A stretch of DNA of 64,000 nt from an uncultured Acidobacteriota bacterium (lineage in GTDB: Bacteria; Acidobacteriota; Terriglobia; Terriglobales; Acidobacteriaceae): positions 66,750 through 130,749 of the forward strand of contig CAWGLF010000017.1 in assembly GCA_963823295.1 (NCBI GenBank), given 5' to 3'. This document shows positions 16,746 through 37,967 of the stretch, piece by piece. Made by a program: the position numbers and the translations under genes. Under the pieces are notes generated by a model, which was not told where the DNA came from, ran no database searches, and saw only the letters and a program-made list of their open reading frames with translations. How positions within the stretch are numbered: position 1 is the stretch's first letter; each line of letters starts with the position of its first letter.

Positions 16746-16863
16746 ATACAAGCCGACTATCCTTTTGGGGAAACGGATTGCTCAACCTAGTCGAAGAGGG
16801 TTTATGTAATTTGAAACTCGGGTTCGGCTAGCGTGAATAGGTAGCTTATACAGGAGGACTGCA

Positions 16864-17793: not shown

Positions 17794-17930
17794 TCGACAA
17801 GCTATAAACGCAAGTTGCTCATGCGGCGGATTCATGAGGCTGAATCTGCGCGGATATTTGAGCCATTGTTTGATGGGACGACTTACGATGTATCATTGTC
17901 GCCGGTGAATCTGTCGAGCGGGGAGGCGCT

Positions 17931-18695: not shown

Positions 18696-19032
18696 GGGCT
18701 TCCGTGGTTAGAGATTCTATCCAGAATTTACGCCGGATTCGGAACTCCTACAGAGCCTCTGGTCCCCGTGCCGCGATGAAAGACAGCGCTCCAGCTTCGC
18801 GATCGTCTTAATAATGCAATCTGATCGCGCTTTCTCTACAGGATTTGCTAATCCGGAATATCACAGGAACGCGTACCCACTCCAGCCAGCTTCCGCCACA
18901 CCCTATTGTTTCAACGCGACGCGATATTCAATCGTTTGACAACTGGCAATATGTCGTCTACCGTGTTGCATAACTTTGGAAGCTCGAATAAAAAGTTCAT
19001 TTTCTACAAATTTGGCGGGGAGGCGGCGATCC

Positions 19033-22000: not shown

Positions 22001-22588
22001 TCCTAGTGCGAGCCGCGCGTTATCCACCTTCGACGTTCCGCAGAATCTTGTCATCAGCTATACAGTGCAATTGCCCTTCAACAACTTCATAGGAAAGGGC
22101 GATGTGGCAAAGCGGCTGACGGCTGGATGGGCCCTTTCCGGCATCACGAGCTTTGTGTCGGGCGAGCCGGTTCAAATTTCAGAAAACGACGATTTTTCTT
22201 TGATCGGCGCCAACTCGAGCTTCGATCAAGCCCAACTACGCGAACAATGGAAGCCGATTATTTGTGAACCGCAATCCACGTTCACAGCAACCGTATTTCA
22301 ACCCAAACTATTTTACCTCGGAGAACCTGGGCCAGGTTGGCGATATTATGCGCCGATTTTTTGTGGGTCCCGGCATCAATAACTATGACATGGCATTGTT
22401 GAAAAATACGGAACTATTCGGCGATAAGCAACTTCAATTCCGTGCAGAAGCATTCAACGTGTTCAACCATGCGCAATTCAACAACCCGTCCGGGAAATTT
22501 CAACAACGGCGGTGCCGGTGGTTTTGGATATGTGACATCCGCACGAGACCCACGCATCATGCAAATTGCGTTGAAGTTGTTGTTCTAG
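19033..22588 (+). pseudogene. TonB-dependent receptor with CarboxypepD_reg N-domain, four frame disruptions
   Basis: - Start: MKLFIKSFLILGVCAILAFTSSRARA-DITGSISGVVTDPSGAVIPGVTVVA.
- The protein is spread over ORFs 18976..19266, 19325..20344, 20256..22382 and 22264..22725, plus an unlisted terminal frame ending at TAG 22586..22588.
- That terminal frame gives the canonical C-terminus NFNNGGAGGFGYVTSARDPRIMQIALKLLF.
- Junctions: ~19210..19222, GGGG 20177..20180, ~22225..22232, and AAATTT 22495..22500. Confidence 0.85.
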
Positions 22589-22691
22589 GAGAATTGAATT
22601 CGAACGGTACACCGAGATGCCGGCTCCTGCAAATCGAATGGAAAGGCATTTCGGTGGTAGCGGGAAGGGATCAGGGGAGAGTTTGCTGCGA

Positions 22692-23559
22692 ATGCTGTGC
22701 CGGTGGCGAATCATCGTCAGCTTAGTTGGGACCTTAGGGGTGCTTTCCGCTGCCTCGTTGCATGCGCTACAAGCCGTTGACGCAGGCCATCCCACAAATG
22801 TTTCCAGGAGCATCCCAGGCCTCTGCTCTCTTTCGCACAAATTGTGGTGTCTGCCATGGAGTCGATGGCCGCGGTGGTGAACGCGCGCCGGATATTGCCA
22901 CGGCTTCTGAAGTGCAGCGACTTTCGGATAGCGACCTGATCGGAATTGTCGAGAATGGAATCTCCGGCGCCGGCATGCCGGCCTTCGGGTCGTTAGGCCA
23001 AACGAAGGTAAAGACAATTGTCGATTACCTGCGGGTTCTGCAAGGAAGAGGAACAGAGACGGCCGTAAAGGTTCCTGGAGATTCACGGGCCGGAGAATCG
23101 CTTTTCTTTGGAAAAGCGAAATGTTCAACCTGCCATATGGTGAACGGCCGCGGCGGCTTTATTGCGAGTGACCTGTCGTTGTATGGATCGCACGAGACGG
23201 CAGCCAGAATTCGCGGTGTGATTACCAATCCCGAAAAAAAACTGCCGCCGCGATCAAAAAGCACCACGGTTATTACTCGTCAAGGCGAGACATTTACCGG
23301 AATGGTGAAAAACATTGATAATTTCTCCATTGCACTACAAACGCCGGATGGAGCATTCCACTTCTTTAAAAAGGCTGATCTCAAACAAATTGATTTGTAT
23401 TCTCATTCACTGATGCCGGCCGATTACGGTGTGATCTTAGATAGCCGTGAACTCGACGATCTGGTGAATTACCTGCTCGACGTAGGGATTGAAGATGCAA
23501 GCCGCGCGCCGAAAGAGCCTCCCAGGCGTTATCGCAATCATGAAGATGGCTGGAATTAG
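22692..23559 (+). pseudogene. Dihaem c-type cytochrome; signal peptide separated from mature part by a frameshift
   Basis: Two CxxCH sites (NCGVCHG, KCSTCHM) lie in ORF 22762..23559. The only plausible export signal (MLCRWRIIVSLVGTLGVLSAASLHA) lies in frame 22617..22880, immediately upstream. c-type cytochromes must be exported, so one indel between 22767 and 22820 is inferred. Confidence 0.65.
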
Positions 23560-23596
23560 CGACACTTTCCCTGATACATAACGGGACATATAGCAG

Positions 23597-24895
23597 ATGA
23601 TGAGTGAAAGCAGAGCAATGGAAAACTTCAAAATGAAACGTAGAACTTTTATCAGATGGGCCGCTGCTTTTCCGCTGATTGCACAAGTTGGCATTCAGCA
23701 GGCGCTTGGAACAGGCTGGGCGGAGGTCGCAAAAGATTCCACCGACAATATATATACGCGGATTGGCGTAAAGCCGGTGATTAATGGACGTGGAACATGG
23801 ACATACTTAAGCGCCACGCTGGAGTTGCCTGAAGTAAAGGCGGCGCAAGAGGCGGCGGCTCGGCATTACGTGAATATATTTGATCTCCAGCATGCGGTTG
23901 GAAAACGATTGGCCGCATTGACCGGCGCGGAATCCGGCATGATTACCTCAGGAGCCGCAGGTGCAATGGCATCCGCAACAGCAGGCTGCATCGCTGGAAC
24001 AGACCCGGACAAGATTTGGCAACTACCGGATACTACCGGCTTAAAGCATGAAGTCGTCATGGTAGGTGGTCGAAGCCCATTTGATAGCGCCATTCGCCTG
24101 GCTGGCGGGAAACTTGTGATTGCGGAGTCGTCCGAGCAGCTTCCAAATGCGATCAACAGCAACACGGCGATGATCTATACGGGTTCAGAGGTTGACGAAT
24201 TAGCAAAGGAGATTGCTATCGCTAAAAGCCATCAGGTGCCGATTTTTATGGATGCAGCCGACGGGATTCCCCCCATAGAAAAGCTTAAGCTATTTGCCAA
24301 AATGGGGTGCGATTTGTACACCGTGAGCGGAGGCAAGGGATTGTGCGGTCCCCAGTCAAGTGGGGTTTTGCTTGGACGCAAAGATCTTATAGAAGCCGCT
24401 CTGGCGAACACGAATCCATGGGAAGGCGCGGTATGCCGTCCGATGAAAGTTGGTAAAGAAGAAATCATGGGATGTCTGGCGGCTGTAGAAGCGTGGTTCC
24501 ATATGGACCTGAATGCGTTGAATAAAGACTGGAACGAACGCGTCGAACGCATCGCAAAAATAGTAGGCACGGTTCCGGGAGTTCAAACCAAGATCTATAT
24601 ACCCAATGAGAATCATTATCCGACGCTGAGTGTCTCTTGGGACCAGAATGCCTGGGGCTACAGTACGGCAGATTGCGCGAACCAGCTCCTTGACGGCACA
24701 CCGAGTATCGCGGTTTTGACCGACGACAATCCGAGCGATGTTTTGGGCCGCAGGCCTCATAAGAAAGCTAAATCTCACGACCCTTCGCACAATACCCTGC
24801 AGATAGTTTCAATGACGTTGAAACCGAAGGAGGAGATCATCGTCGGTAGAAGATTGCGTCAGCTTTTGATGGCTGCCAGACCAAAGAATGCATAG
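23597..24895 (+). CDS. SelA-like (DgaE-like) PLP-dependent enzyme 1 with twin-arginine leader
   Basis: MKRRTFIRWAAAFPLIAQ leader. Core: INGRGTWTYLSATLELPEV, TGAESGMITSGAAGAMASATAGCIAG, VSGGKGLCGPQSSGVLLGRKDLI (PLP-lysine motif of the SelA fold family), RPMKVGKEEIMG. Confidence 0.7.
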   Translation: MMSESRAMENFKMKRRTFIRWAAAFPLIAQVGIQQALGTGWAEVAKDSTDNIYTRIGVKPVINGRGTWTYLSATLELPEVKAAQEAAARHYVNIFDLQHAVGKRLAALTGAESGMITSGAAGAMASATAGCIAGTDPDKIWQLPDTTGLKHEVVMVGGRSPFDSAIRLAGGKLVIAESSEQLPNAINSNTAMIYTGSEVDELAKEIAIAKSHQVPIFMDAADGIPPIEKLKLFAKMGCDLYTVSGGKGLCGPQSSGVLLGRKDLIEAALANTNPWEGAVCRPMKVGKEEIMGCLAAVEAWFHMDLNALNKDWNERVERIAKIVGTVPGVQTKIYIPNENHYPTLSVSWDQNAWGYSTADCANQLLDGTPSIAVLTDDNPSDVLGRRPHKKAKSHDPSHNTLQIVSMTLKPKEEIIVGRRLRQLLMAARPKNA

Positions 24896-24951
24896 GTAGG
24901 GGCATCGCATTCAGTAGCGGGATTGATCTGCGCAAATAAGAGGCATCAAGA

Positions 24952-26329
24952 ATGAACTTACGGTCCTTCACGCTTGTCCTGGCGCTCGGAATTGCGGCGC
25001 GTGCGATGGGCGCCCGATCCTCGATGCCCGCAGCTCCTTCCCCATGTCATATTCAAGCGACAACTTTCGACGGATGGCAAGCTGAAGAAGTTACGAATGA
25101 CTGGCTGCGCTTGACATTTGTCCCTCAACTGGGTGGCAGGTTAATGCAAGTGACATTTAACGGTCACCCATACCTATTCGTTAACCCAGAGTACAGAGGC
25201 AAGTATATTTCTCCTGATGCGGCGGCGGGGCGCTGGATTAACTATGGCGGCGATAAAATCTGGCCCTTGCCCGAGGGAAACGAGGATGAGCAGCATTGGA
25301 CAGGAGCCTCAACTCCGCTGGATGACGGCCTTTACAAATTTAAGATCCTCTCGCAGAACAAACGATGTGCTGTGAGTCTGGAAGGTCCTCCTGATCCCGC
25401 CGACAGGGCTTCAATATAACCGCGTGATTAGTATCGGAAATGATTCGCCGGAAATTTCCTTTCATGCCATCATGAAAAACTTCACCGGCCATACGATCGT
25501 CTGGTCCGTGCAGTCTGTGTCACAATACGACCTGTCAAATCCAAAGGATGCAGGCCAGTACAACCATGATTTCTGGGCGTTTTCGCCTCTAAATCCCCAC
25601 TCCTCTTATCTGGATGGATATCACATCCGCGATGGTCTGGCGAACGATCCTTCATTCAGCATAAAAGGAGGGCTATTCCGCCTGAATTGGCGATACCTGG
25701 AGAGCGAAGTCTGGCTAGATTCCACCGCAGGCTGGATCGCATTGATTGACGGCATGAGTGATTATGCAATGGTCGAAAAGACTAAATACATCGAGAACGC
25801 ACCATATCCAGGAAAAGCGTCAGTCATTTTTTATAAGAATGGGCCTACAGTACGGCTCGACCCAAATGGAATTCCATATCTTACGTCAACCCACCCGGAA
25901 CAAACGCCGTACTACATGGAAGCGGAGCTCAATAGTCCGATGGAGGTGTTGGCGCCGGGTGAGACATACGCCATGGACACGTCGTGGTTTCCGTCTCGTA
26001 TGGGACGAGATCTTTCTACAGTAACGGATGCAGGTATGGTCGGTAAGCCTTTGAGTGTCTCCAGGAACGATGGAAAGCTAGTTATAGACGGCAGCTTTGG
26101 AGTTTTTTTCTCTGGCAAATTAAAGGCACATTTATATGACAACGGTGGCGCGGAGCGAAGCCAGATTACTCTGCAAGCGGTCAGCCCGCAAGATCCAGTT
26201 GAGCTTCATCAGGCCATCGCGGCGCCCACGGGAATAGCCCGAGTATCTCTTCATCTGATCGACGATAACAGTGTGGATCGTGGTTCTCTCGGAGAAGTAT
26301 TCGTTACCGGAGCCGAGGGAGGACAATAG
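24952..26329 (+). pseudogene. DUF4380-like (mutarotase-like beta-sandwich) exported protein, one frameshift
   Basis: Signal peptide plus LRLTFVPQLGGRLMQVTFNGHPYLFVNPE...WINYGGDKIWPLPEG lie in ORF 24952..25419. This continues as TGLQYNRVISIGNDSPEISFHAIMKN... in ORF 25424..26329 (open from ~25382). The junction is at the CCC/GCCG run 25396..25403. Confidence 0.5.
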
Positions 26330-26333
26330 TCGC

Positions 26334-27986
26334 ATGATCGCGAAGCTGCGAGGAATCTGGATGGCGGTTTGCGCCTATGTAGTCGTTATCTGCGCAGCGT
26401 TCGTTGTCTGTGCAGGCGGCCAGAGTAGCGGCAAATCGGCTCTAGGAATCGTAGATGTGCAGCCGGCTCAGCTACTTTCTCGTGGGATTTATGAAAACTG
26501 GCCTTCCTATAATGGCGACTACACGGGGAGGCGTTACAGCAGCTTAATGCAAATAACTCCACAAAATGTCCATCAGCTTCGTGCGCAGTGGATATTTCAT
26601 AGCAAGAACGCCGGCACGTTTGAGGCAACCCCGCTCGTAGTGAATGGCATAATGTATATCACTGCGTCAAACGATGCATACGCTCTCAATGCTGTCGACG
26701 GACGCACGCTCTGGCACTACTCGCGACCTATATCCAGCGGTCTCATCGATGACGCCTCACAACATACGAGCCGGGGCGTTGCTCTATTGGGAACAAGGCT
26801 GTACATGGAAACGGATAATGCCCATTTACTTTGCCTGGATGCGCGATCTGGAAACCTGCTCTGGGACGTTCCTTATGCTGCCTGGAACAAGAATTATGGG
26901 GCGACAAGCGTTCCTCTGATTGTTAAGGACAAGGTGCTCGTTGGAACTTCTGGAGGTGATGACGGGGTACGTGGCTTTTTAGCAGCTTATGATTCTATGA
27001 CGGGAAAATTGGCATGGCGCTGCTGGACAATTCCGGGGCCAGGAGAGTTTGGCTCCTCAAGCTGGCCGGGAGATGCTTATCTGCACGGAGGAGGGACAGC
27101 ATGGATGCCAGGGACCTATGACCCGCAACTTAACATGCTGTACTGGGGGACTGGCAATGCCGCGCCGGATTATGATGGGAGCGTTCGCCCTGGCGATGAT
27201 CTTTATACGGCGAGTCTACTGGCCATCAACCCGGATACGGGAAAGATAAGGTGGTACTTCCAATTCACGCCGCATGATGTATATGACTACGATGGCGTTG
27301 AAACTCCTGTTCTGATCGATGGCATCTATGATGGGAAACCTAGAAAGCTTCTTATAGAGGCAAATCGGAATGGCTTCATTTATGTACTCGATCGTACGAA
27401 TGGGAAATTTTTATCGGCTACACGGTTTGCGGAAAGAGTAAATTGGGCTAAGGGTATCGACTCTCACGGAAGGCCAATATATACGAACGTTCAGCCAAGT
27501 TCAGATGGAGCGCTCATTTGCCCAGGTAACGTTGGAGCTAGCAACTGGTATTCGCCGTCATATAGCGAGTTCACGCATCTTTTTTATTTTCTATATCTCG
27601 ATGACTGTACGGTGAACTATAAGAAACAAGAGATATTCGTCGCCGGGAAGGAATACTACGCGACGGGCGCTCGACATGATCCGAACGGGAAGGGGAAGAA
27701 GACTCTTCTTGCATTCGATCCGAGGACGAATCGTTTTGCATGGCGCTATCCACAGAATGGAACTGCTGATTCCTGGGGTGGGGTAATGACAACAGCCACA
27801 GGATTGCTCTTTTTTGCCGACGATGCAGAATCCTTTGAGGCCGTAGATGCTAAGAGCGGAGAACCTCTATGGCATTTTAATACTGGGCAGACTTTGCATG
27901 CATCTCCGATGAGTTATTCAGTGGACGGCAAACAATACGTAGCAATTGCTTCAGGTAACGATTTGCTCAGTTTTGCACTGCCCTGA
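26334..27986 (+). CDS. PQQ-dependent dehydrogenase, methanol/ethanol family (signal-anchored)
   Basis: ATG 26334 (MIAKLRGIWMAVCAYVVVICAAFVV). Motifs: YNGDYTGRRYSSL, ATPLVVNGIMYI, GTSGGDDGVRGFLAAYD, GGGTAWMPGTYDPQLNMLYWGTGNAAPDYDGSVRPGDDLYTASLLAINPDTGKIRWYFQFTPHDVYDYDG, ASNWYSPSY. Eight-blade propeller pattern. Confidence 0.85.
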   Translation: MIAKLRGIWMAVCAYVVVICAAFVVCAGGQSSGKSALGIVDVQPAQLLSRGIYENWPSYNGDYTGRRYSSLMQITPQNVHQLRAQWIFHSKNAGTFEATPLVVNGIMYITASNDAYALNAVDGRTLWHYSRPISSGLIDDASQHTSRGVALLGTRLYMETDNAHLLCLDARSGNLLWDVPYAAWNKNYGATSVPLIVKDKVLVGTSGGDDGVRGFLAAYDSMTGKLAWRCWTIPGPGEFGSSSWPGDAYLHGGGTAWMPGTYDPQLNMLYWGTGNAAPDYDGSVRPGDDLYTASLLAINPDTGKIRWYFQFTPHDVYDYDGVETPVLIDGIYDGKPRKLLIEANRNGFIYVLDRTNGKFLSATRFAERVNWAKGIDSHGRPIYTNVQPSSDGALICPGNVGASNWYSPSYSEFTHLFYFLYLDDCTVNYKKQEIFVAGKEYYATGARHDPNGKGKKTLLAFDPRTNRFAWRYPQNGTADSWGGVMTTATGLLFFADDAESFEAVDAKSGEPLWHFNTGQTLHASPMSYSVDGKQYVAIASGNDLLSFALP

Positions 27987-28105
27987 TGATTATATTTTCG
28001 GAGAGCTTTATGGGATGCAGGAGCAGTTTGGGGCGTCAAGGTTGCAGGGTATTGCGGGCTTTATCGACCGATTGTTCCTTCCATGTTCAAAAAGGGAGTT
28101 TGACC

Positions 28106-29404
28106 GTGGCTGGCTGTGAAGCTGACAAAAATGTAAATGACCGGCGATCTTTTATTAAGTTGCTGGCCGCCGCGCCTTTGTTCGCCACCATTGGTTCTCG
28201 TGGTGTTGCGAGCACGGTGGTTGCCGCGGCTGGAAAATCTTCTTCCGCTGATGTTTATACCCGTCTTGGAGTGCGGCCATTTATCAATGCACGCGGAACG
28301 TGGACTTACCTGAGCGGCTCGCTGGAACTACCCGAGGTAAAGCGCGCGGTAGAGAATGCGTCTCAACATTTCGTCGATATGTTTGAACTGCAACGCGGAG
28401 TTGGGAGGCGGCTTGCTGAGCTTTCCGGGGCCGAATCTGGGATGGTGACCTCTGGCTCGGCTGGCGCGATGGCAGTCGCGACCGCTGCCTGCATAGCCGG
28501 CTCGGATCCCAAAAATATCTGGCAGTTACCGGATACCACCGGGTTGAAAAACGAAGTTGTTATGCTGGGTGGCCGGATTGCGTTCGACAGCGCGATACGG
28601 CTGGCCGGAGGTAAATTGGTGCTCGCCCACGGAGTGGAGGATTTACATCCCGCCATTACTTCGCAAACTGCGATGGTCTATACAACATGGCGGGATGATC
28701 GTCTCCCAAAGGCGCTGGCGATCACGCACGCGGCAGGAGTTCCGCTGCTATTGGATGATGCAGCCGGGATTCCGCCATTTGACAATCTTACGCGCTATGC
28801 CAAAATGGGCGTCGACCTTTATTGCTTCAGCGGTGGGAAGGGTCTGCGCGGTCCGCAATGTTCCGGAATCCTGTTAGGCCGAAAAGATTTGATCGATGCA
28901 GCCCTTGCGAACAATAATCCATGGGAAGGCTCCGTGTGCCGGCCCATGAAAGTGGGCAAAGAAGAGATCATAGGAATGCTGGCAGCGGTCGAGTATTGGT
29001 CGCGCGCGGATCTCGACGCTCTGAATAGGGAGTGGAGGAGCCGGGTCGAGCGCATTGCCAAGCTAGTTCAAACGGTGCCAGGAGTTACAACCTCCATAAC
29101 GATACCGAAAGAAGGAAATAGCTATCCGACCTTGACGGTGAGTTGGGATGAAAAACGCTTTGGTTTGACAGTATCTCAATGCGACCAGCAGCTGCGGGCG
29201 GGCGAACCCCGCATTGAGGTACTAACCAGCACGAACCCGAGCCTGGTACCGGCTGTCCACGAAGGCGATGATCCAAAGAAAAAACATGAAGCCCGCCCGA
29301 ATCAGTTGCAAATTGTTTCGATGACTTTGCGATCAGGTGAAGACCTCACGGTTGGAAACCGTTTACGCCAGATCTTGGCCGCTGCGCGTAGGCAAACCGC
29401 GTGA
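28106..29404 (+). CDS. SelA-like PLP-dependent enzyme 2 with twin-arginine leader
   Basis: The ORF is open from 27986 (ATG overlapping the PQQ stop as TGATG). GTG 28106 is preceded by AAGGGAG (28092..28098) and yields a short leader (M)AGCEADKNVNDRRSFIKLLAAAPLFA. Core: INARGTWTYLSGSLELPEV, SGAESGMVTSGSAGAMAVATAACIAG, FSGGKGLRGPQCSGILLGRKDLI, RPMKVGKEEIIG. Start choice is uncertain. Confidence 0.7.
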   Translation: MAGCEADKNVNDRRSFIKLLAAAPLFATIGSRGVASTVVAAAGKSSSADVYTRLGVRPFINARGTWTYLSGSLELPEVKRAVENASQHFVDMFELQRGVGRRLAELSGAESGMVTSGSAGAMAVATAACIAGSDPKNIWQLPDTTGLKNEVVMLGGRIAFDSAIRLAGGKLVLAHGVEDLHPAITSQTAMVYTTWRDDRLPKALAITHAAGVPLLLDDAAGIPPFDNLTRYAKMGVDLYCFSGGKGLRGPQCSGILLGRKDLIDAALANNNPWEGSVCRPMKVGKEEIIGMLAAVEYWSRADLDALNREWRSRVERIAKLVQTVPGVTTSITIPKEGNSYPTLTVSWDEKRFGLTVSQCDQQLRAGEPRIEVLTSTNPSLVPAVHEGDDPKKKHEARPNQLQIVSMTLRSGEDLTVGNRLRQILAAARRQTA

Positions 29405-29440
29405 GCAGGTGCGCACAAATATGGAAAGGTATCCATAAGC

Positions 29441-30664
29441 ATGAGAAACATCCTTATCGGATTGATACTAGCCTGCCAGCCGGTGTTCCTGGGTGCTCAA
29501 ATCCAGCCGGTGATTTCGAAGAATGGACCTCGGCTGCCCGGCGCCAATACGCCCGGAATTTTTGCCGGCGGTTATCTTTACGTCGCGGGTGAAGGAGATC
29601 AAGCTCCGGACGGAACTGTACCCACAACCTTTGATGCTCAGGCCGACCAAGCTTTCAAGAATGTCAAAGCTGTGGTCGAAAGCGCCGGTCTGACGATGGA
29701 TCATGTCGTATATACGCAGATTTACCTCGATAACATAAAGAACTTCGACGCGATGAATCGAGCGTACGCCAGATACTTTCCCAAAGCGCCTCCTGCCCGG
29801 GCCTGTTTAGGGGTCGCGGCACTCCCTGGCACTTCCATTATGGTCGAGGCAGTCGCGGTTCGTGACCTGAGTCAAAAGAAGGTAGTCGTGGTGCCGGGTT
29901 ACAAATTGAACGATCCGATCTCTGCGGGAATCCTGACACGGGACCGTCTATTTGTCTCCGCCATGCGAGGCCGCGATCCGGTAACTGGCGAGGTTCCGTC
30001 GGATCCTGCGGCTCAAGTCAATCTAGCGCTGGACGGAATGAAGGCCGTTCTCCAGGCTGCAGGCCTTGATATGCGCTATATGGTTTTCGTGAATCCCTAT
30101 CTTACAAAGGCAATTCCGAACAGAACGATGAATAAGTTGTATGCGACGCGTTTCGAATTTGGCAATACACCCGCGCGGGCAACCATCGAAGTGACCAGCC
30201 TTCCCGGCGGAGCACAGATCGAATACACGGGGGTAGCGGTCCGGAATTTGTCCGATCGGCATGCGATCCGCCCACTAAATATGGCTCCTAGTCCGACGGC
30301 AAGCCCCTGTGTATTTGCGGGAGATACACTTTATTGCTCCGCGAAGGATGGCTTTATTCCCGGACCGAACGAAGGCATATATGTTGCTGGTGTGGACCAG
30401 CAGCTCCGCCAGACTATGCGCAATCTACTGGATGATTTGCAAGAAGCTGGACTGGACTTCAGTTCCGTTGTCAGCACTACGGTCTATCTGGATAATATTT
30501 CGGACGCTCCCACGGTAAATAAACTTTATGCAACATACTTTAAAGGAAATCCGCCGGCACGCACGACCGTCCAGCAGATAGCTCCGGTAGAGAGAAAGCC
30601 AAACAAAGATGGTCAGTATCCGGGTCTTGAACAAATTTCTTTAATAGCAATGCGCCAGAGGTAA
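29441..30664 (+). CDS. Exported protein with three tandem RidA/YjgF/L-PSP domains
   Basis: 407 aa. Signal peptide MRNILIGLILACQPVFLGA. Three ~126-aa repeats each carry the RidA pattern: G..L(Y/F)(V/C)(A/S)...(F/V).(A/Q)....(A/L)L.N(V/L/M)K..(V/L)..AG(L)....(V/M)V....(Y)L, ending PPARACLGVAALPG (R120), TPARATIEVTSLPG (R246) and PPARTTVQQIAP (R374). Confidence 0.8.
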   Translation: MRNILIGLILACQPVFLGAQIQPVISKNGPRLPGANTPGIFAGGYLYVAGEGDQAPDGTVPTTFDAQADQAFKNVKAVVESAGLTMDHVVYTQIYLDNIKNFDAMNRAYARYFPKAPPARACLGVAALPGTSIMVEAVAVRDLSQKKVVVVPGYKLNDPISAGILTRDRLFVSAMRGRDPVTGEVPSDPAAQVNLALDGMKAVLQAAGLDMRYMVFVNPYLTKAIPNRTMNKLYATRFEFGNTPARATIEVTSLPGGAQIEYTGVAVRNLSDRHAIRPLNMAPSPTASPCVFAGDTLYCSAKDGFIPGPNEGIYVAGVDQQLRQTMRNLLDDLQEAGLDFSSVVSTTVYLDNISDAPTVNKLYATYFKGNPPARTTVQQIAPVERKPNKDGQYPGLEQISLIAMRQR

Positions 30665-30671
30665 CAACTTC

Positions 30672-31569
30672 ATGGATCATACTAAGCTGCGCGTCTTCCT
30701 GTTTATAGCTCTGCTCGCCAGGTATCTTCTGCTCGCCTCTATTGCATGCTGAGCAACGCAAGATCGATCCGACCTTTCTGTATCGAAATACCTCAGTAGC
30801 CAGGGCGAAAAAGTCCGATATCACAACGGCGACCTGCCATTACAAACCGCTGTTCGGCCAGGGAGATCCAGATACAGCTGTAGTTGTCGGTGTTGCTCGT
30901 TACGGTGAAGCAGTGGTCGATTCCAACGGAGCCTGCGCTACAGTTCAATATCCTGATGAAGATCAGGTATACGTGGTGCTCGACGGCAGCGGATCCGTGA
31001 AGTATGGAAATGAGATGGTATCTCTTAAGAAGGAAGACTATCTCTATTTCCCCGCAACAATACCCCATACTTTAAGCAATAAATCCGGCAGATCGCTGAC
31101 GGTGGTCGTTATGGGCTTTCACACGCAAGGATTTGAAAAAGCCAGATTGCCAGAGCATCCTCTGAAGGCGAACATCGAAGATGTACCGACGCGTACTGTA
31201 GAGGGGCATCCATCTTCCGCTCGCTTTCGCTTGCTGATGGGAGATGCCGATAGTAAACGTGACCGCATTGCGGCTGGCCGCGTTCTGACCAGCCTTTTTC
31301 TGATGGAAATAGCGCCGAACGGCACTAATTTTCCCCATCATCACGAACGCGAAGAGGAGATTTACCTGGTGTTAAACGGCCACGGCGTAATGGTGGCGGG
31401 TGGAGGAATGAACGGAATCGCGGGACGTCACCCTGCCAAAGCCGGGGACGCGTACTTCTTCCGGCTCAACTGCACCGTTGGGTATTACAGTGCTCCCGGC
31501 GTTAAATCACGCATTCTCGCCGTCCGCTCGTGGTATCCAGGCATGCAGCAAAAAGGGGCAAAACACTGA
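30672..31569 (+). pseudogene. Bicupin protein; lipoprotein/signal leader separated by a frameshift
   Basis: ORF 30742..31569 has two cupin barrels. The second has the metal motif FPHHHEREEEIYLVLNGHG. Immediately upstream in another frame, ATG 30672 encodes MDHTKLRVFLFIALLARYLLLASIAC-stop (30750..30752). Deleting one base near 30748..30752 fuses ...SIAC to EQRKIDPTFLYRN. Confidence 0.6.
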
Positions 31570-31711
31570 TCGGGATGAGAACGTCAGAAGTATACGAGTA
31601 GTAGCACTTCGGGTAAAGGAAATCTAATCGTTTATACGCGTTATTTCGATAGAACTGGTGACCTTAGACATTGTTCGTTAACTCAATATAGATAGCTGAT
31701 ACGAGGCGCAA

Positions 31712-32968
31712 ATGAATCGTCGCGGGTTTGTAGGTGGATTGGCTGCACTGTCAGGAGCGATTTTTGGATCTGGGACATCGTTGGCGTCGATGAGGCCGAG
31801 TGAGCGAGGTTCATGGAACGGACAGATACGCGGATTAGGGGAAACAGGAGATGTATATAAGGAGTTAGGGCTAAATACAGTTATCAATGGCCAGGGAACC
31901 ATGACTTACCTGGGCGGATCGCTGATGCGGCCGGAGGCAGAGGAAGTAATGAAGCTTGCGAGTCTCAGCTTCGTAAACATTATGGATCTGGAAGCGGCTG
32001 TCGGAAAAAGAATCTCGAAAATGCTGAACCTGCCTCAAGGGTACGGGGTGATTGTCACGTCAGGTGCAGCATCAGCGATCCAAAACGGTTATTCGGGAAT
32101 ACTGACGGGAAGCAACGAGAAATACATCAAACAGATTCCGGACCTTACTGGGCTGAAGTCTGAGGTCATCATTCAAAAAGCACATCGCAGTCCGTGGGAC
32201 CATCAAATCCGTGCAACTGGAGTAAAGATGGTTGAGGTAGAGACAGTTTCTGACGTGCATAACGCAATAAGCGACCGAACTGCTGCCATGCATTTTCTGA
32301 ACCTCGCCGATCCCGATGGACAGATTAAGCGCGAGGATTGGCTGAAGCTAGCGCATGCGGAAAATCTGCCGGCATTTATCGATGCTGCCGCCGATACTCC
32401 GCCCAAGTCTCATCTTTGGGATTATGCCAACATGGGTTACGATCTGATCTCATTCAGCGGAGGAAAGGCAATGCGGGGCCCGCAATGTACTGGATTGCTG
32501 ATAGGGCGTCAGGAGATGGTGAACAATGCGTTATTAAATATGAGTCCGAATGAAGATACTTTGGGCCGCATTGCTAAAGTTGGTAAGGAAGAGATTATAG
32601 GCTTGGCTAAGACCATTGAGTTATATATGGCTGAAGACGAAGACGCTCTCGAAGCCAGCCAATGGAAAATGCTAGACACAATCGCAAATCGTGTCAAACA
32701 AATTCCGGGAATCACAATCACCAGAAATGTGCCGGAAATTGCAAATAACTTTCCGGCTATTCAGATTCATCTGGACCCCACCGTAGTACCCGTTAAATCT
32801 CACGAGGTTCTTCAAAAATTGGCGGCCATGAAGCCGGCGATCATTCTAGGTGGCGGGGAGGGCAATGAGAGTAATGTGATCGGGATAACCGCGATCGTAT
32901 TGCAACCCGGACAGGATAAGATCATCGCCGACGCATTATCGAAGGTCCTGCGCGGACGGGCTGCGTGA
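31712..32968 (+). CDS. SelA-like PLP-dependent enzyme 3 with twin-arginine leader
   Basis: MNRRGFVGGLAALSGAIFGSG leader. Core: INGQGTMTYLGGSLMRPEA, VIVTSGAASAIQNGYSGILTG, FSGGKAMRGPQCTGLLIGRQEMV, RIAKVGKEEIIG. More diverged than paralogues 1 and 2. Confidence 0.7.
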   Translation: MNRRGFVGGLAALSGAIFGSGTSLASMRPSERGSWNGQIRGLGETGDVYKELGLNTVINGQGTMTYLGGSLMRPEAEEVMKLASLSFVNIMDLEAAVGKRISKMLNLPQGYGVIVTSGAASAIQNGYSGILTGSNEKYIKQIPDLTGLKSEVIIQKAHRSPWDHQIRATGVKMVEVETVSDVHNAISDRTAAMHFLNLADPDGQIKREDWLKLAHAENLPAFIDAAADTPPKSHLWDYANMGYDLISFSGGKAMRGPQCTGLLIGRQEMVNNALLNMSPNEDTLGRIAKVGKEEIIGLAKTIELYMAEDEDALEASQWKMLDTIANRVKQIPGITITRNVPEIANNFPAIQIHLDPTVVPVKSHEVLQKLAAMKPAIILGGGEGNESNVIGITAIVLQPGQDKIIADALSKVLRGRAA

Positions 32969-33033
32969 AAGGCGTATTCCGTCGAAAGCGTATAAAGATG
33001 CGAACCATCGAGACAAAAGATTTCTGATCTAAG

Positions 33034-34023
33034 ATGAAAACCATGAAGAAGCTTTCGTTGCTCGTACTTATTATTTGTTCTTTGATTAGTATGTGCATTT
33101 GTGCGCCATTGCGGGGACAGACCGGCAAACGCCGGTTCGAGCTGGACGCGCTTTCTCCAGGGTTCTGGAAACTATTCGATAGGCAATCCAAACTCACCGT
33201 TGTGGCTTCCGGTTTCGGCTTTACCGAAGGGCCCGTTTGGGACAAGGCTGGATTCTTGTGGGTAAGTGACGAAACAGCGAACAAAATCTTCCAGGTAAAT
33301 CTGCGTACCGGACGGAAGCAGGTGATGATTGCCCTGGGAGATCCGGATGGCAATGCGTATGACCAGCAGCGGCGCCTTTTGGACTGTGCCAGCGTGCTGC
33401 GTGCCGTCATTCGGCTGTCTCCGGACGGAAAAAGCTATAAGACTGTGGCAGACAAATATCAGGGAAAGCGTTTCAACAGCCCAAATGACGTGGTGCTAGG
33501 GCCCGATGGCGCCATCTACTTCACTGATCCAACCCTCGATCTGGTTGCCGGCCAAAAACAGGAGATACCGTTTCAAGGAGTTTATCGGATATCAAAGAAC
33601 GGCCAAGTGCGACTGCTGAGCAAAGATCTGGCACAACCCAACGGACTCGCATTTTCCCCGGACGGGAAAAGATTTTATGTGGACGACTCACAAAAGTTGA
33701 ACATCCGTGTCTATGATTTCAACCCGGACGGAACGCTGGCGAACGGACGCATCTTTGGCACGGAGGCGGTGGGCGGACCGAAGGATGGTGTCCCGGACGG
33801 GATGAAGGTCGACAAAAAAGGAAATCTTTATGTCGTAGGCCCCAGAGGGATATGGGTCTGGAGTGCGCAAGGCCACCATCTTGGGACGATTGTCGTTCCA
33901 GAGCAACCTGCGAATCTGGCGTGGGGAGATGATGGTTACTCGACGCTTTATATAACTGCCGGGACATCGGTCTATAAAATTCATACAAAATCTCACGGGT
34001 TTGCACCTTATCCTATAAGATAG
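33034..34023 (+). CDS. SMP-30 / gluconolactonase / LRE-family lactonase with signal peptide
   Basis: MKTMKKLSLLVLIICSLISMCICA leader. Motifs: GFTEGPVWD, FNSPNDVVLGPDGAIYFTDP, QPNGLAFSPDGKRFYVDD, PDGMKVDKKGNLYV, PANLAWGD. Six-blade propeller lactonase motifs. Confidence 0.8.
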   Translation: MKTMKKLSLLVLIICSLISMCICAPLRGQTGKRRFELDALSPGFWKLFDRQSKLTVVASGFGFTEGPVWDKAGFLWVSDETANKIFQVNLRTGRKQVMIALGDPDGNAYDQQRRLLDCASVLRAVIRLSPDGKSYKTVADKYQGKRFNSPNDVVLGPDGAIYFTDPTLDLVAGQKQEIPFQGVYRISKNGQVRLLSKDLAQPNGLAFSPDGKRFYVDDSQKLNIRVYDFNPDGTLANGRIFGTEAVGGPKDGVPDGMKVDKKGNLYVVGPRGIWVWSAQGHHLGTIVVPEQPANLAWGDDGYSTLYITAGTSVYKIHTKSHGFAPYPIR

Positions 34024-34055
34024 CCGCAAATTTCAGAGTATAAGGAGACAAGAGC

Positions 34056-34505
34056 ATGGCAACACGGCGAAATGTATTGAAGGGCGCTGCTTCCATTGTG
34101 GCAGCAGCCGGTCTTACCTCTTCCATGGGTGCAGAGACATCGAAGAAGAAAAAAGTCTATTATCCGGGTGGTAAAAAGCCGGAGAAGACCCCACTATTTT
34201 CAAGCATGATTTCCTACGGAAACTTGCTATTCATCTCTGGTGTGGGTGCGCATTTTCAGGGAGATATCACCTCTCATACGAAACATGTTTTGGACGAAAT
34301 CGAAAAGGAGCTGAAGAGCGCTGGTTCTTCGATGGATAAAGTTCTTAAATCCAATGTATATTTGAGCGATTTGAAGGATTACGCGGGCATGAATGCGGTT
34401 TTTCAGGGTCGTTTTGGAGATAGTCCCCCTGTTCGTACCACGATTGCGGCGGCCGGCCTTCCAGGTAACTCTCTCGTTGAGATTGATGTAATCGCATATA
34501 TTTAG
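34056..34505 (+). CDS. RidA-family protein with twin-arginine leader
   Basis: MATRRNVLKGAASIVAAAGLTS leader, then GNLLFISGVGAHF...HTKHVLDEIEKELKSAGSSMDKVLKSNVYLSDLKDYAGMNAVF...PPVRTTIAAAGLPGNSLVEIDVIA. Single RidA domain with conserved Arg. Confidence 0.8.
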   Translation: MATRRNVLKGAASIVAAAGLTSSMGAETSKKKKVYYPGGKKPEKTPLFSSMISYGNLLFISGVGAHFQGDITSHTKHVLDEIEKELKSAGSSMDKVLKSNVYLSDLKDYAGMNAVFQGRFGDSPPVRTTIAAAGLPGNSLVEIDVIAYI

Positions 34506-34605
34506 TTGTTGTCCGGGATACGACGCGCTGGCGGCCTTAAGGGCTTTTTGCGTTGCTGTTCTGTCGAGGTAAATCTTCTCGGTCAGTTCTATTGGAGTGT
34601 GTTAG

Positions 34606-35430
34606 ATGAGGTTACTTTCGCGCGATACACGGCGGAGTTCAAGCTTTTTTTCGAAAGGAACGACAACCACATACTTACGCCTGAGTAAGGCGCTCGTAGC
34701 TGCCGTTGTTGTGCTTGTATTGTCGTTTGCACTGTTTCTGGTTCGGGCACAGTCGATATCTGAGGTAACAACTCCCAAGAACAACTCCGACGCAATTCTG
34801 GATGCTTTTCGCAAGGTAGAGGTCGCGTCCGTGTCGGATGCGATCGAGCAAGTCTCCGGAAGACGCATGTATATGTCTCATCACATGCATCCTTTATTTC
34901 CAGCTCATTTCGCAGGGTTTGCTGTGACTGTGCAACTCAAAAAAGAAGAAAATCACGATCCGAACGCACTGGACGGCATGCTCGCCGCCATCGATACAGG
35001 GAAAAGGGATTCTGTGTATGTCATGAAGGTTCAGGATGGCCAGGACATTGCAGGAATGGGGGGTCTAATGGGCACCGCCATGGCGGCACGGGATTACGCG
35101 GGAGCCGTAATCGACGGTGGCGTTCGCGATGTCGCCTATCTCCGCAAGATCGAGTTTCCTGTCTACGCGACTGGCATTGTTCCGTCGACCTCCGTTGGAC
35201 ATTACCGTTTCGCGGGTGCAAACATCCCGATCGTTTGCGATGGGGTTTCTGTAGACCCCGGCGATATTATCGTCGCAGATAGCGACGGGGTTGTTGTTGT
35301 ACCGCGAGCCCAGGCGGTGCAAGTGTTGACTGTCGCACAGCAGATGGACTTTAAAGAACACTCGATGTACCCATACATCACCAGGCTAAAATCTATAGAA
35401 CAAGCTGTGAAGCAATTTGGCCGCCTTTGA
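34606..35430 (+). CDS. RraA-family (class II aldolase / decarboxylase-like) protein with N-terminal signal-anchor
   Basis: Hydrophobic segment ALVAAVVVLVLSFALFLV. Core: DSVYVMKVQDGQDIAGMGGLMGTAMAARDYAGAVIDGGVRDVAYLRKIEFPVYATG...DPGDIIVADSDGVVVVP. Clear RraA/HMG-aldolase signature. Confidence 0.7.
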   Translation: MRLLSRDTRRSSSFFSKGTTTTYLRLSKALVAAVVVLVLSFALFLVRAQSISEVTTPKNNSDAILDAFRKVEVASVSDAIEQVSGRRMYMSHHMHPLFPAHFAGFAVTVQLKKEENHDPNALDGMLAAIDTGKRDSVYVMKVQDGQDIAGMGGLMGTAMAARDYAGAVIDGGVRDVAYLRKIEFPVYATGIVPSTSVGHYRFAGANIPIVCDGVSVDPGDIIVADSDGVVVVPRAQAVQVLTVAQQMDFKEHSMYPYITRLKSIEQAVKQFGRL

Positions 35431-35489
35431 AGACAGCTCCAAAATCTGCCTTAAGGACGGAAGCAAGCCTTGATAAGAGCTAGCCTATA

Positions 35490-36851
35490 GTGACACCGGG
35501 TAACATTACACCGCGAACTGTCCTCCCCATTCGCTATATTCTGGTCTTTTGGCTTTTTTTATTGAGCGCTGTTGCATTTCTTGATCGCACGAATATTTCG
35601 ATTGCCGGCAATTTCCTGGCCGCGAGCTATCATCTTGATAGCATTCGACTGGGCTGGGTGTTCAGCGCTTTTTTGGTTGGGTATGCGGCGTTTCAAATCA
35701 TCGGTGGATGGCTTGCCGTTCGGATGGGCCCACGTCGCGTGCTGGCGGCGGGAGTTCTGTGGTGGGGGATTTTCACCGCTCTTACCGCACTTGTTCCCAC
35801 CAATCTGCGTATTTCGCTGATTCTGCTGATCGCGGTCCGATTCGCCCTCGGCGCTGGAGAGGCTGTAGTATACCCGGCAACCAACCAATTTGTGGCCCGA
35901 TGGATTCCCGTTCACGAACGTGGCAAAGCAAATGGATGGATTTTTGCTGGCGTTGGCGCAGGTGCCGGTCTTACCCCTCCGCTGATAGTAGCGATCATCA
36001 CCCATTATGGATGGCGATCTTCTTTTTGGTTCAGCGCCGGATTGGGAGTGTTCATGGGCATTGTGTGGTACTTGATTGCTCGCGACACGCCTGCAAAACA
36101 TCCTTTTATTTCTGTGGGTGAACTTCACCACATCCAAAGCCAATTGCCAGATTCGGATTCCGATCCAATCTCTGCAAACATAATGTCCACCCCGCTAATA
36201 GTACCTTTGCTGGCGCCAGCCAGATTCTCATGGGTAAATTTGCTTACAAAAAAAAACGTATGGCTTCTCACGTTCAGCTATTTCACTTATGGATATGTTG
36301 CCTGGATATTTTTTAGCTGGTTTTATATTTACCTGGCGCAGGTGAGAGGCCTCAATTTAAAGACCAGCGCATATTATGCGATGCTGCCTTTCCTTGCAAT
36401 GACCATTTGTTGCCTGATAGGAGGCGTGATCAATGACTGGGTAAGTAAACGTTATAGTTTGCGCCTGGGTAGGTGCGGAATCGGAGTGATCTCGTTACTA
36501 CTCACAGCTGTTTTTCTTGTGGTGGGCGCCACTGCGCATAGTCCTGAGCTGGCGAGCGTTATTTTGGCAGGTGGTGCGGGGTCGCTCTATCTTTCGCAAA
36601 GCTCTTATTGGTCTGTAACTGCGGATATAGGAGGCCATCAGGCCGGGATTCTATCAGGCATTATGAATATGGGAGCGCAGTGTGGGGGTGCAATCACTGC
36701 ATCTTTGACACCGGTCATAGCTTTACATTACGGATGGGTTACATCATTTGCTGTTGCAGCGGGACTTGCACTTCTTGGTGGTTGTGCCTGGATCGGTGTT
36801 GATCCAACAGTGAACATTGCGAGTCCACTGGCCATGACTTCGATTGATTGA
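35490..36851 (+). CDS. MFS transporter, anion:cation symporter (aldonate/hexuronate-type)
   Basis: 453 aa, about 12 TM helices. FLDRTNISIAGNFLA near TM1 and the GWLAVRMGPRRV loop are typical of ACS-family acid-sugar transporters. Confidence 0.8.
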   Translation: MTPGNITPRTVLPIRYILVFWLFLLSAVAFLDRTNISIAGNFLAASYHLDSIRLGWVFSAFLVGYAAFQIIGGWLAVRMGPRRVLAAGVLWWGIFTALTALVPTNLRISLILLIAVRFALGAGEAVVYPATNQFVARWIPVHERGKANGWIFAGVGAGAGLTPPLIVAIITHYGWRSSFWFSAGLGVFMGIVWYLIARDTPAKHPFISVGELHHIQSQLPDSDSDPISANIMSTPLIVPLLAPARFSWVNLLTKKNVWLLTFSYFTYGYVAWIFFSWFYIYLAQVRGLNLKTSAYYAMLPFLAMTICCLIGGVINDWVSKRYSLRLGRCGIGVISLLLTAVFLVVGATAHSPELASVILAGGAGSLYLSQSSYWSVTADIGGHQAGILSGIMNMGAQCGGAITASLTPVIALHYGWVTSFAVAAGLALLGGCAWIGVDPTVNIASPLAMTSID

Positions 36852-36868
36852 TGCGCGTTACTTCTGGA

Positions 36869-37357
36869 TCATTTCTTTTTGGCGATCGCGACGAGTGTGC
36901 GCGATTGTTTGGCGGCTTGGGTCCATGCAGTGAAGGCTCTTCGGCCGTCGGAGCCTGGCAGCGGGGATAGATTGCTTACGAGCAGGACCAGGTTATAGAT
37001 CGCCAGCCAATGATACATACCCGGAACTGTCCAGAGCGCCCCTGCCACGAGCGCGTTCACCAACGGTCCGCTCAGGGAAATCGCAAGATCGTCAAGCGGC
37101 GCACGCGCCTGCTCCCGCCGAATGTATGTACCGTTGAGGCAAAGACCCATTTCGTGGACCCTTACACCGATGATCCGGGCTGCTAACAGGTGACCGCACT
37201 CATGTAACAGTAGGCTTGCCACCGTCAGCATTCCGAGCGCTATTCCCGCGGCAATATGCCCGGCCATAGCACCGAGCCCGATCAGCACAACTGCCACTGA
37301 CATCACGGCCCCACCGCGGTTTATCCGAAATGCGATCACATAGACTCCGGCTGGCAC
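36869..37357 (-). CDS. Small site-2-protease (M50) family metalloprotease
   Basis: LLHECGHLLAARIIG (HExxH in a TM helix) and SNLSPLPGSDGRRAF (NxxPxxPxDG motif). The start may instead be the internal M at 37303. Confidence 0.65.
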   Translation of the reverse strand: MPAGVYVIAFRINRGGAVMSVAVVLIGLGAMAGHIAAGIALGMLTVASLLLHECGHLLAARIIGVRVHEMGLCLNGTYIRREQARAPLDDLAISLSGPLVNALVAGALWTVPGMYHWLAIYNLVLLVSNLSPLPGSDGRRAFTAWTQAAKQSRTLVAIAKKK

Positions 37358-37967
37358 GCCCTTTTAGTGCAGCACCCAAGGGAAAGCAAGCGGCTTGCCA
37401 ATCCGGCAGTACGTTAAAAGCAGGCTGTTTCTCGACCGTGATAGGCCGACTTAAGCACTGTATTCTCAACCCGGAAGCGGTCTTTTCCTGGAGACCTGCA
37501 CCCAAATCTATATGCCTCTGGGGACCCGCGATATGCAAGGTTTTGCGTCTAATTCCGACAATGTTGTATCAGCGGTAGAGAGGAACATCCGCAATTCATG
37601 CCAAATCTGTGCAAAAGGATTTCCCGTCAATCTGTTCCTTGTTCTATATCGCTAAGTTGGGAAGGTCAGCTGGCGTTTGAAAGACCTCCCCATTGCAAGC
37701 TGGTTGACAAATACGCATTTCGGAGTACGATCTCTGCGACCGTTCTGTCCCCCTGCAGATTGGCATGAGTTATCAACCGCGTAAGAACTTCCCCTCATGC
37801 CGCGGCCCTAACTAATAAGTGGTCGGGGATTCTGCGCATATCTCAGCCGCTAGCTTCGATCCATTTCCGTTGTAAAACGCACTGTTCTCGATGGATTTCT
37901 GCCTTTGAGGATAGCGGTAGCAAAAACCTCCGGCTAAGTTCGACTACACCCGGAAAGGAAGGAAAAT

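Follow-up and report, generated by a model that had tools for sequence, protein, structure and literature searches.

Can one polypeptide carrying three Rid domains behind an export leader take the place of a RidA homotrimer, and what would it act upon? The question is raised by an open reading frame (ORF) at 29441..30664 (+) in a 64,000-nt stretch of DNA (the window; contig CAWGLF010000017.1) from an uncultured Acidobacteriota bacterium. Its product, a three-domain Rid protein, is referred to below as the 3x-RidA protein. The architecture, residue pattern, synteny and leader motifs were observed directly. Based on these and on a structural model, it is fairly probable that the protein is exported by the general secretory (Sec) route as a single-chain Rid pseudo-trimer, and would act in the periplasm as an enamine/imine deaminase alongside a DgaE-like lyase encoded directly upstream.

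Three Rid repeats in one chain

The ORF opens at the first start codon past an upstream stop (Table 1). In a Pfam scan, three stretches of the product matched PF01042 (Endoribonuclease L-PSP / Rid; E 2.8e-55), and an NCBIfam scan matched the whole protein to TIGR00004, 'Rid family detoxifying hydrolase', with 197 bits summed over three stretches. When scanned singly against PF01042, repeats 1, 2 and 3 gave 84.1, 55.6 and 55.6 bits, respectively; each is above the Pfam cut-off of 27.3, and therefore the triplication is far beyond chance. Identity among the three repeats is 30-35%, and each is 28-35% identical to E. coli RidA. R120, R246 and R374, one per repeat, are the Arg of the P-A-R motif and align to E. 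coli Arg105, with frequencies in the family of 98%, 100% and 96%. The initial annotation had described a signal peptide-like leader followed by three RidA repeats with this Arg at residues 120, 246 and 374, and all of these features were recovered.

By its PF01042 profile the protein belongs to the Rid / YjgF-YER057c-UK114 superfamily. With an Arg105 equivalent in every repeat it falls among the Arg-containing Rid subfamilies (RidA, Rid1-3), which are predicted imine hydrolases, and with three Rid domains tandem-fused in one polypeptide it agrees with the definition of 3x-RidA given by Niehaus et al. 2015.

Seven residues were reported to be invariant in the canonical RidA pocket: Tyr17, Gly31, Asn56, Asn88, Arg105, Pro114 and Glu120 (PMC1884159). 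Five of these are kept in repeat 1 and four each in repeats 2 and 3, so that no repeat is an archetypal RidA. Alignment of each repeat to the RidA signature, which had been proposed as a check, thus found the Arg in all three but an incomplete set of the other residues. The departures are N36 (for Tyr17) and M134 (for Glu120) in repeat 1; I160 (for Tyr17), A174 (for Gly31) and G199 in repeat 2; and A287, A301 and the invariant Q398, which takes the Glu120 position, in repeat 3. Repeat 1 bears R120 (29798..29800), N106 and C122. In repeat 2, R246 (30176..30178), N231, T248 and E261 are invariant across 117 family members. Repeat 3 contains an 11-residue insertion (about residues 383-393) ahead of its last strand, and an invariant block, PSPTASPCVFAGDTLYCSAK, which spans C290, C299 and K302.

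Fold model, covariation and the three predicted pockets

An AlphaFold2 model was built from the 117-sequence alignment and compared with the PDB by Foldseek. The model (mean predicted local distance difference test score, pLDDT, 91.5; predicted template modelling score, pTM, 0.90) repeats the RidA order of strands and helices three times (DSSP), with linkers of 5-6 residues from the last strand of one repeat to the first strand of the next. The predicted fold of each repeat is the chorismate-mutase-like beta-alpha-beta-alpha-beta(2) fold. More than 40 single RidA chains each matched one domain, with template modelling (TM) scores of 0.85-0.95 relative to the target (TMt) and 0.30 relative to the query (TMq), and a root-mean-square deviation of about 1 Å. 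The sole matches to the whole model were the chorismatases 5ag3, 4bps and 5a3k, which aligned colinearly over 364-417 columns (TMq ~0.5, TMt ~0.6). The structural check suggested in the initial annotation therefore returned a compact model of three RidA domains, whose whole-length matches are of moderate TM-score. A search of the PDB by sequence found solely single-domain chains of 123-156 amino acids (aa), and no structure of a 3x-RidA.

In TdcF, Asn88 orients Arg105, and a hydrogen bond spanning the subunit interface links Glu120 to residue 107, next to Gly31 (PMC1884159). If a single chain closes into a ring, the Arg of repeat i is expected to share its retention or loss with Asn88 in that repeat and with Glu120, Gly31 and Tyr17 of one particular other repeat, cyclically. 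Co-retention between repeats was scored as odds ratios (OR) among 63 full-length 3x representatives with pairwise identity of 50% or less. Arg(i) and Asn88(i) were co-retained with OR of 10, 14 and 10 (p 0.03, 4e-4 and 1e-3, respectively). For Glu120, the pair from repeat i to repeat i+1 was the highest in every Arg row (R1-E2, OR 7.0; R2-E3, 3.5; R3-E1, 5.5, p 0.015). The cyclic pairs for Gly31 were R1-G2 (4.7), R2-G3 (4.05) and R3-G1 (4.3), with p values of 0.04-0.12, and R3-G2 was close at 3.9. Tyr17 gave an OR of 11 for R3-Y1 (p 0.003) and was off-cycle for the other two repeats, R1-Y2 and R2-Y3 reaching just 1.6 and R2-Y2 4.5. Counts pooled by hand gave an OR of about 4.5 for i to i+1, 2.3 for i to i and 0.8 for i to i+2. 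The coupling between repeat 3 and repeat 1 is what ring closure predicts. The same is seen in the close family: the four R374S sequences all lie among those lacking Y36 and/or E134, as do 9 of the 14 without Asn at position 360, and this signal is phylogenetically clustered.

Based on the pTM, the chorismatase matches over all domains and the cyclic covariation, the single chain most probably closes as a pseudo-trimer of the RidA kind, with three interface sites that differ from one another. The covalent pseudo-trimer put forward in the initial annotation is to this extent upheld; the idea is not new, such proteins having been presumed to be covalently linked trimers by Niehaus et al. 2015.

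Each pocket of the predicted ring would combine the Arg105/Asn88 side of repeat i with the Glu120/Gly31/Tyr17 side of repeat i+1. Pocket 1 would place R120, N106 and C122 of repeat 1 opposite E261, A174 and I160 of repeat 2, and it retains the Arg and Glu. Pocket 2 would be formed by R246, N231 and T248 of repeat 2 and by Q398, A301, A287 and K302 of repeat 3. All of these residues are 100% invariant in the 117 sequences, and the pocket is non-canonical, with Glu120 replaced by Gln and both Gly31 and Tyr17 by Ala. In pocket 3, R374, N360 and T376 of repeat 3 would face M134, G50 and N36 of repeat 1. Most family members have this pocket in its fully canonical form (Y, G, E plus R), and it is degenerate in the lineage of the window, the Tyr and Glu having been lost in its subclade; Glu136, two residues farther on the same strand, might be a partial stand-in for the lost Glu134. 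The closest homologue (P0002, at 10001..11224 of the related locus L085; 93% identity) carries R374S, as do three further close relatives, and all four are without the repeat 1 Tyr/Glu partners. The three sites are non-identical, as had been claimed. Three active sites are doubtful on this residue pattern: retention of the Arg is no proof of three working sites, given that R374 has lost its partners here and is itself replaced in the 93% identical homologue.

Predicted export, the upstream partner and a proposed function

The putative signal peptide, MRNILIGLILACQPVFLGA, has a positive n-region (R2) followed by a hydrophobic core (10-residue Kyte-Doolittle mean up to 2.5), and it was modelled as a low-pLDDT helix (residues 2-18) ahead of the first RidA strand at residue 21. 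A leader of like kind was found in 102 of 115 family members, and an N-terminal hydrophobic leader in 50 of 59 diverse 3x relatives, a few being without one. The xA/Q junction after the leader is conserved across homologues, and we infer cleavage at A19/Q20. Motif inspection of the leader revealed neither a twin-arginine motif nor a plausibly placed lipobox. A lipoprotein attached via Cys12 was rejected: the Cys lies too early, its LILAC context is unlike a lipobox, and it is missing from many homologues. In the family alignment and the model, an invariant pair, Cys290/Cys299, lies on facing strands of the repeat 3 beta-hairpin, which is consistent with a periplasmic disulfide. Sec-like leaders are carried by the 3x-RidA protein and by two other products of the cluster, an SMP-30 protein and a 458-aa protein. 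Motifs of the twin-arginine translocation (Tat) pathway are carried by all three DgaE-like proteins and by a single-domain (1x) Rid protein. The Tat motifs on the pyridoxal 5'-phosphate (PLP) ammonia-lyase paralogues and on the 1x Rid suggest export of folded, cofactor-loaded or oligomeric proteins. A literature search found no paper on an exported or periplasmic RidA.

The three neighbouring enzymes had been taken as SelA-like. All three matched TIGR01437 (E about 1e-45) and the D-glucosaminate-6-phosphate ammonia-lyase equivalog model (E 1e-36 to 1e-41), with scores that were all below the curated NCBIfam cut-offs (about 155 vs 385 bits). The nearest solved structures were 8t7j and the D-glucosaminate-6-P ammonia-lyase 7lc0/7lce (E 4e-31, compared with 5e-6 for true SelA). 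The nearest characterised relatives (TIGR01437/NF047797; 7lc0/7lce) are named PLP-dependent (D-glucosaminate-6-phosphate) ammonia lyases, and the three neighbours are better described as DgaE-family ammonia-lyases. Given their Tat leaders, a phosphorylated cytoplasmic substrate is unlikely. For the gene directly upstream of 3x-RidA, the listed ORF (27986..29404) is 40 codons too long, homologues beginning at about residue 40. Its true start is probably the GTG at 28106, which is preceded by AAGGGAG and followed by the RRSFI motif. Its stop lies 36 nt before the 3x-RidA start, with no terminator-like site between.

A word-indexed protein search with the 3x-RidA protein gave 6190 matches at E <= 1e-10. 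The best 120 of these are nearly all about 400-430 aa long (one is a 348-aa fragment) and 62-100% identical and, where named, are called 'RidA family protein' or 'reactive intermediate/imine deaminase'. In a scan with one genome per species, relatives were found in at least 410 genomes; the 80 best were nearly all from Acidobacteriota (Acidobacteriaceae, Bryobacterales, Sulfotelmatobacter and other Terriglobia). An exhaustive search of a 50%-clustered library yielded 165 representatives at E <= 1e-30, many of them 360-440 aa long with 30-50% identity, which points to a far wider range of three-domain Rid proteins. The survey of such proteins proposed earlier was therefore productive, for an architecture that had already been named. 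Of 83 related loci, 62 have a DgaE-like gene directly upstream in the same orientation (median gap about 80 nt), which agrees with the suggested genomic tie of 3x-RidA to PLP enzymes releasing enamine/imine products. Within 6 kb on each side, exactly one DgaE-like gene was present in 67 of these loci, two in 1 and none in 15. Strict co-occurrence with the supposed SelA-like genes was rejected on account of these 15 loci and the varied contexts of distant homologues. The 458-aa protein, a pyrroloquinoline quinone (PQQ)-like enzyme and a bicupin recur across the related loci.

Alpha,beta-eliminating PLP ammonia-lyases should release an enamine/imine product of the kind on which RidA acts. RidA hydrolyses enamine/imine products of PLP enzymes in an Arg105-dependent manner, Tyr17 and Glu120 being dispensable in the Salmonella protein (PMC4433059). 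In Pseudoalteromonas, the glucosaminate deaminase OngC is found with a RidA-family protein, OngD, which the bacterium needs in order to grow on N-acetyl-glucosaminic acid (PMC9537276). Based on the role of RidA, the ammonia-lyase partner and the OngC/OngD precedent, the 3x-RidA protein is proposed to be the periplasmic imine-deaminase partner of the DgaE-like lyase, with an enamine/imine deaminase (EC 3.5.99.10-type) activity predicted from its Arg and genomic context. The exported chain would fold and its three domains would close into a ring like that of the free RidA homotrimer, giving three inter-domain pockets which would since have diverged: R120 with E261 as an Arg/Glu pair, R246 with Q398/K302/A301 as an invariant, non-canonical site, and R374 with N36/M134 as a site decaying in this lineage. 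The upstream Tat-exported lyase would release a 2-imino (enamine-derived) 3-deoxy acid in the periplasm, and the 3x-RidA protein would hydrolyse it to a 2-keto acid and ammonium, thereby shielding PLP enzymes. Ring closure, site pairing, periplasmic location, catalytic activity, substrate and the reason for the fusion are all inferred in this scheme.

Tat exports folded proteins; a Sec-exported chain crosses the membrane unfolded and cannot pre-assemble a homotrimer. The Sec leader on the fused protein, as against the Tat motif on the 1x Rid, suggests why fusion helps: it would guarantee trimer assembly for a chain that crosses the membrane unfolded, and the single-domain homotrimer would travel folded via Tat. 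A bolder and rather doubtful extension is that the three-Rid fusion is a general adaptation to Sec export, with Tat used for single-domain forms, and that the pockets have been sub-functionalised, Arg246/Gln398/Lys302 forming a new site for the 2-imino-3-deoxy-aldonate of the periplasmic DgaE-like lyase. If true, this would be a periplasmic module for deaminating amino-sugar acids, not described before, in a phylum that is dominant in soil.

Several observations weigh against the proposed periplasmic pseudo-trimeric deaminase, and rival explanations were weighed as well. The evidence for ring closure and for the pairings R120-E261, R246-Q398 and R374-M134 is indirect (the pTM, the chorismatase TM-score and the covariation); the covariation p-values taken one by one are modest (0.003-0.12), and phylogeny confounds the pattern at the level of the family. 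An arrangement without an intrachain pseudo-trimer, in which the domains are beads on a string or are swapped between chains (e.g. three chains forming three mixed trimers), would suit chorismatase TM-scores of only 0.5-0.6, a model judged by its confidence scores and Foldseek matches, and the occurrence of higher oligomers among Rid proteins (hexameric AmnE). It sits poorly with the pTM and with a pLDDT that stays high through both short linkers. The covariation of the repeat 3 Arg with the repeat 1 Tyr/Glu also implies a pocket shared by the first and last domains, although an intermolecular swap could mimic this, and such an arrangement is very improbable. Export of the 3x-RidA protein was judged by eye and by hydropathy, and the Leu at -3 of the proposed cleavage site is atypical. 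These points, together with leaderless cytoplasmic relatives (e.g. P0154, P0259), favour a protein that is not exported, its hydrophobic stretch being a membrane anchor or an annotation artefact and its action taking place at or inside the cytoplasmic membrane. This we hold to be highly unlikely in view of the leader kept through most of the family and of the diverse relatives, the Tat or Sec leader on every catalytic neighbour, and the Cys290/Cys299 hairpin pair, as would be expected of a periplasmic disulfide.

The proposed chemistry faces objections of its own. Scanned singly against TIGR00004, the repeats gave 88.8, 57.3 and 60.7 bits, none reaching the RidA-subfamily cut-off of 106.25. 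The most conserved pocket (R246/Q398) may be no classical deaminase site, because Gln replaces Glu120 and Ala replaces Gly31 and Tyr17. The DgaE-like gene lies elsewhere within 6 kb in 6 of the 83 loci and is absent within 6 kb in 15, and distant homologues sit in varied neighbourhoods (TonB-receptor or PQQ). Two other genes of the cluster are frameshifted here relative to the 91% identical L085, so that the locus is perhaps not fully functional or the assembly error-prone; a search of public sequencing runs found none that contains the stretch, and no expression data. The protein could instead be a neofunctionalised Rid scaffold that has kept the pseudo-trimer fold, its selected function lying in the non-canonical pocket (R246, T248, Q398, K302, A301, A287, C290/C299) and consisting of another hydrolase or isomerase reaction on a sugar-acid intermediate, or of ligand binding; chorismatases and 2-aminomuconate deaminases exemplify such specialised branches of this fold. 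The full invariance of that pocket fits this explanation, as do its departures from the seven conserved RidA residues, the low scores of repeats 2 and 3 (57-61 bits), and the decay of the canonical-looking pocket (R374 + Y36/E134), the least conserved of the three. Specialised activities of the fold are moreover documented, and the model is globally chorismatase-like. Yet Salmonella RidA was little affected by replacement of Glu120 and Tyr17 (PMC4433059), no sequence-family match to chorismatases or other specialised families was obtained, and the tight pairing with an ammonia-lyase expected to release an enamine/imine fits the ordinary role of RidA; neofunctionalisation is accordingly rated unlikely. 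The initial annotation had offered another model, in which three sites are tuned one-to-one to the imines of the three SelA-like (DgaE-like) neighbours. Three different pockets, and three DgaE-like paralogues within 9 kb in both the window and L085, are in keeping with it. The same invariant residues are nevertheless found family-wide, 67 of the 83 loci keeping the three-repeat signature with one DgaE-like gene. The very lineage with three paralogues is also the one in which a pocket is degenerating (N36/M134 in the window, R374S in P0002 of L085), and asymmetric specificity of this kind has very little probability.

Gene neighbourhood and known systems

Table 1. Features of the 3x-RidA gene and of its neighbours in the window
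Feature	Position	Strand	Basis or remark
3x-RidA ORF, complete	29441..30664	+	407 aa plus stop; ORF list, PF01042 in three stretches, homologues aligned over 100% of length
Sec-type signal-peptide-like leader (residues 1-19)	29441..29497	+	Hydropathy, family conservation
Repeat 1 (residues 20-143)	29498..29869	+	Closest repeat to canonical RidA; PF01042 84.1 bits, TIGR00004 88.8 bits
Repeat 2 (residues 144-271)	29870..30253	+	PF01042 55.6 bits alone
Repeat 3 (residues 272-407)	30254..30661	+	PF01042 55.6 bits alone; R374 at 30560..30562
Upstream partner, DgaE-family PLP-dependent ammonia-lyase, Tat motif RRSFI	28106..29404	+	TIGR01437 E 7e-46; 7lc0/7lce E 4e-31
Second DgaE-family paralogue, Tat motif RRTFI	23597..24895	+	Profile match, motif
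Third DgaE-family paralogue, Tat motif RRGFV	31712..32968	+	Profile match, motif
Single-domain Rid protein, Tat motif RRNVL at residues 4-8	34056..34505	+	PF01042 E 3e-22; Tat counterpart of the Sec-type 3x
PQQ-dehydrogenase-like beta-propeller, 'acido-empty-quinoprotein group A'	26334..27986	+	Homologue in 42/84 related loci
Bicupin directly 3' of 3x-RidA	30742..31569	+	In 27/84 related loci

The single-domain Rid protein with a Tat leader, also described in the initial annotation, was confirmed. For the beta-propeller the best model was TIGR04528 (545 bits; cut-off 650), and TIGR03075, for methanol/ethanol PQQ dehydrogenases, gave 480.6 bits against a cut-off of 480.05; it is a candidate PQQ-binding protein. 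The bicupin homologue in L085 has 298 aa and starts 8 nt past the 3x-RidA stop. The alignment in the window opens at 30721, before the listed TTG at 30742, and therefore the real start is probably earlier (30673..30742 region).

Further products of the cluster are a TonB-dependent receptor, a c-type cytochrome, a leader-bearing SMP-30/gluconolactonase-like protein, an RraA-type aldolase and a major facilitator superfamily transporter. The RraA-like protein (HMG/CHA aldolase family; 34606..35430) has an N-terminal extension of ~50 residues with a hydrophobic segment, which is unusual for a normally cytoplasmic family, and may be membrane-anchored or exported. The 458-aa leader-bearing protein (24952..26329) accompanies the 3x-RidA cluster at about 50 of 84 loci and had no Pfam, NCBIfam or PDB match. 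It is a single ORF in L085 and in the window falls into two ORFs, 24952..25419 and 25424..26329, that are read in different frames, with a frameshift near 25298-25398; this is either a pseudogene or an assembly indel. The TonB-dependent receptor (19484..22585; 1187 aa in L085) lies in pieces in frames 2, 3, 1 and 2, which requires at least three frameshifts. The G+C content is 50-54% over the cluster region (window ~14000..38000) and 56-61% in the flanks, and the region may be a compositionally distinct, possibly acquired island. No Rfam family match was found anywhere in the window. The picture suggested by the gene content is that of a largely periplasmic pathway oxidising and deaminating some amino sugar or related amino acid-like compound.

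Few 'metabolite damage control' families are as widespread as Rid, whose multi-domain forms are uncharacterised in the searchable literature. The 3x-RidA protein is largely ordinary, being a member of a known but uncharacterised architecture. The new elements are the asymmetry from site to site, the covariation that speaks for a closed ring, the conservation of an exported DgaE-like partner and the contrast between Sec and Tat leaders. Three naturally different pockets in one chain would permit site-by-site mutagenesis, which is impossible in a homotrimer. The conserved pairing with an exported DgaE-like lyase points to periplasmic amino-sugar-acid handling in Acidobacteriota, which are abundant and poorly understood soil bacteria. 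The gains are incremental and for specialists, and the understanding of the Rid family is unchanged.

Among known systems, the chorismatases of the FkbO/Hyg5/XanB2 type (4bps, 5ag3, 5a3k) are the best multi-domain structural match and are colinear with the model. Their monomer is reportedly a pseudo-threefold of YjgF-like domains, as Juneja et al. in 2014 and Hubrich et al. in 2015 are said to have described. Identity to them is 12-14% and TM-scores are 0.5-0.6, and their role is in cytoplasmic secondary metabolism on chorismate. A chorismatase identity was rejected, there being no Pfam or NCBIfam chorismatase match, a structural likeness only, and a context of sugar-acid/PLP-lyase genes. Canonical RidA/TdcF/YjgF (1qu9, 2uyj/2uyk) has the same fold as each repeat (TMt 0.9 or better), shares Arg105 and Asn88 with all of them, is likewise associated with PLP enzymes, and has interface pockets of the kind predicted here. 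The 3x-RidA protein differs from it in being one chain rather than three, in its predicted export, and in its non-equivalent sites with 5, 4 and 4 of the seven invariant residues.

The three DgaE-like neighbours match the DgaE family models and structures (Salmonella; 7lc0/7lce) far better than SelA, but they bear Tat leaders and score well under the family cut-offs. OngC/OngD of the Pseudoalteromonas oxidised-chitin (GlcNAc1A, N-acetyl-glucosaminic acid) pathway (Nat Commun 2022, PMC9537276) form an analogous pair, an amino-sugar-acid deaminase and a genetically required RidA-family protein. OngD is, in contrast, a single-domain protein of 127 aa. OngC is annotated as a D-amino-acid deaminase and is not of the DgaE family; OngB and OngC are predicted to be cytoplasmic, and GlcNAc1A catabolism was placed in the cytoplasm.

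The closest precedent is the '3x-RidA' class named by Niehaus et al. 2015 (BMC Genomics 16:382), exemplified by EF_0115 of Enterococcus faecalis. It has the same three tandem Rid domains in one chain and was presumed to be a covalent trimer. In a literature search, the architecture was found described in that paper alone, which devotes one paragraph to the class and gives no structural, assay, localisation or site data. What sets the protein of the window apart is its membership of an Acidobacteriota orthologue group in which a leader is present, the repeats are strongly differentiated and the DgaE-like partner is conserved.

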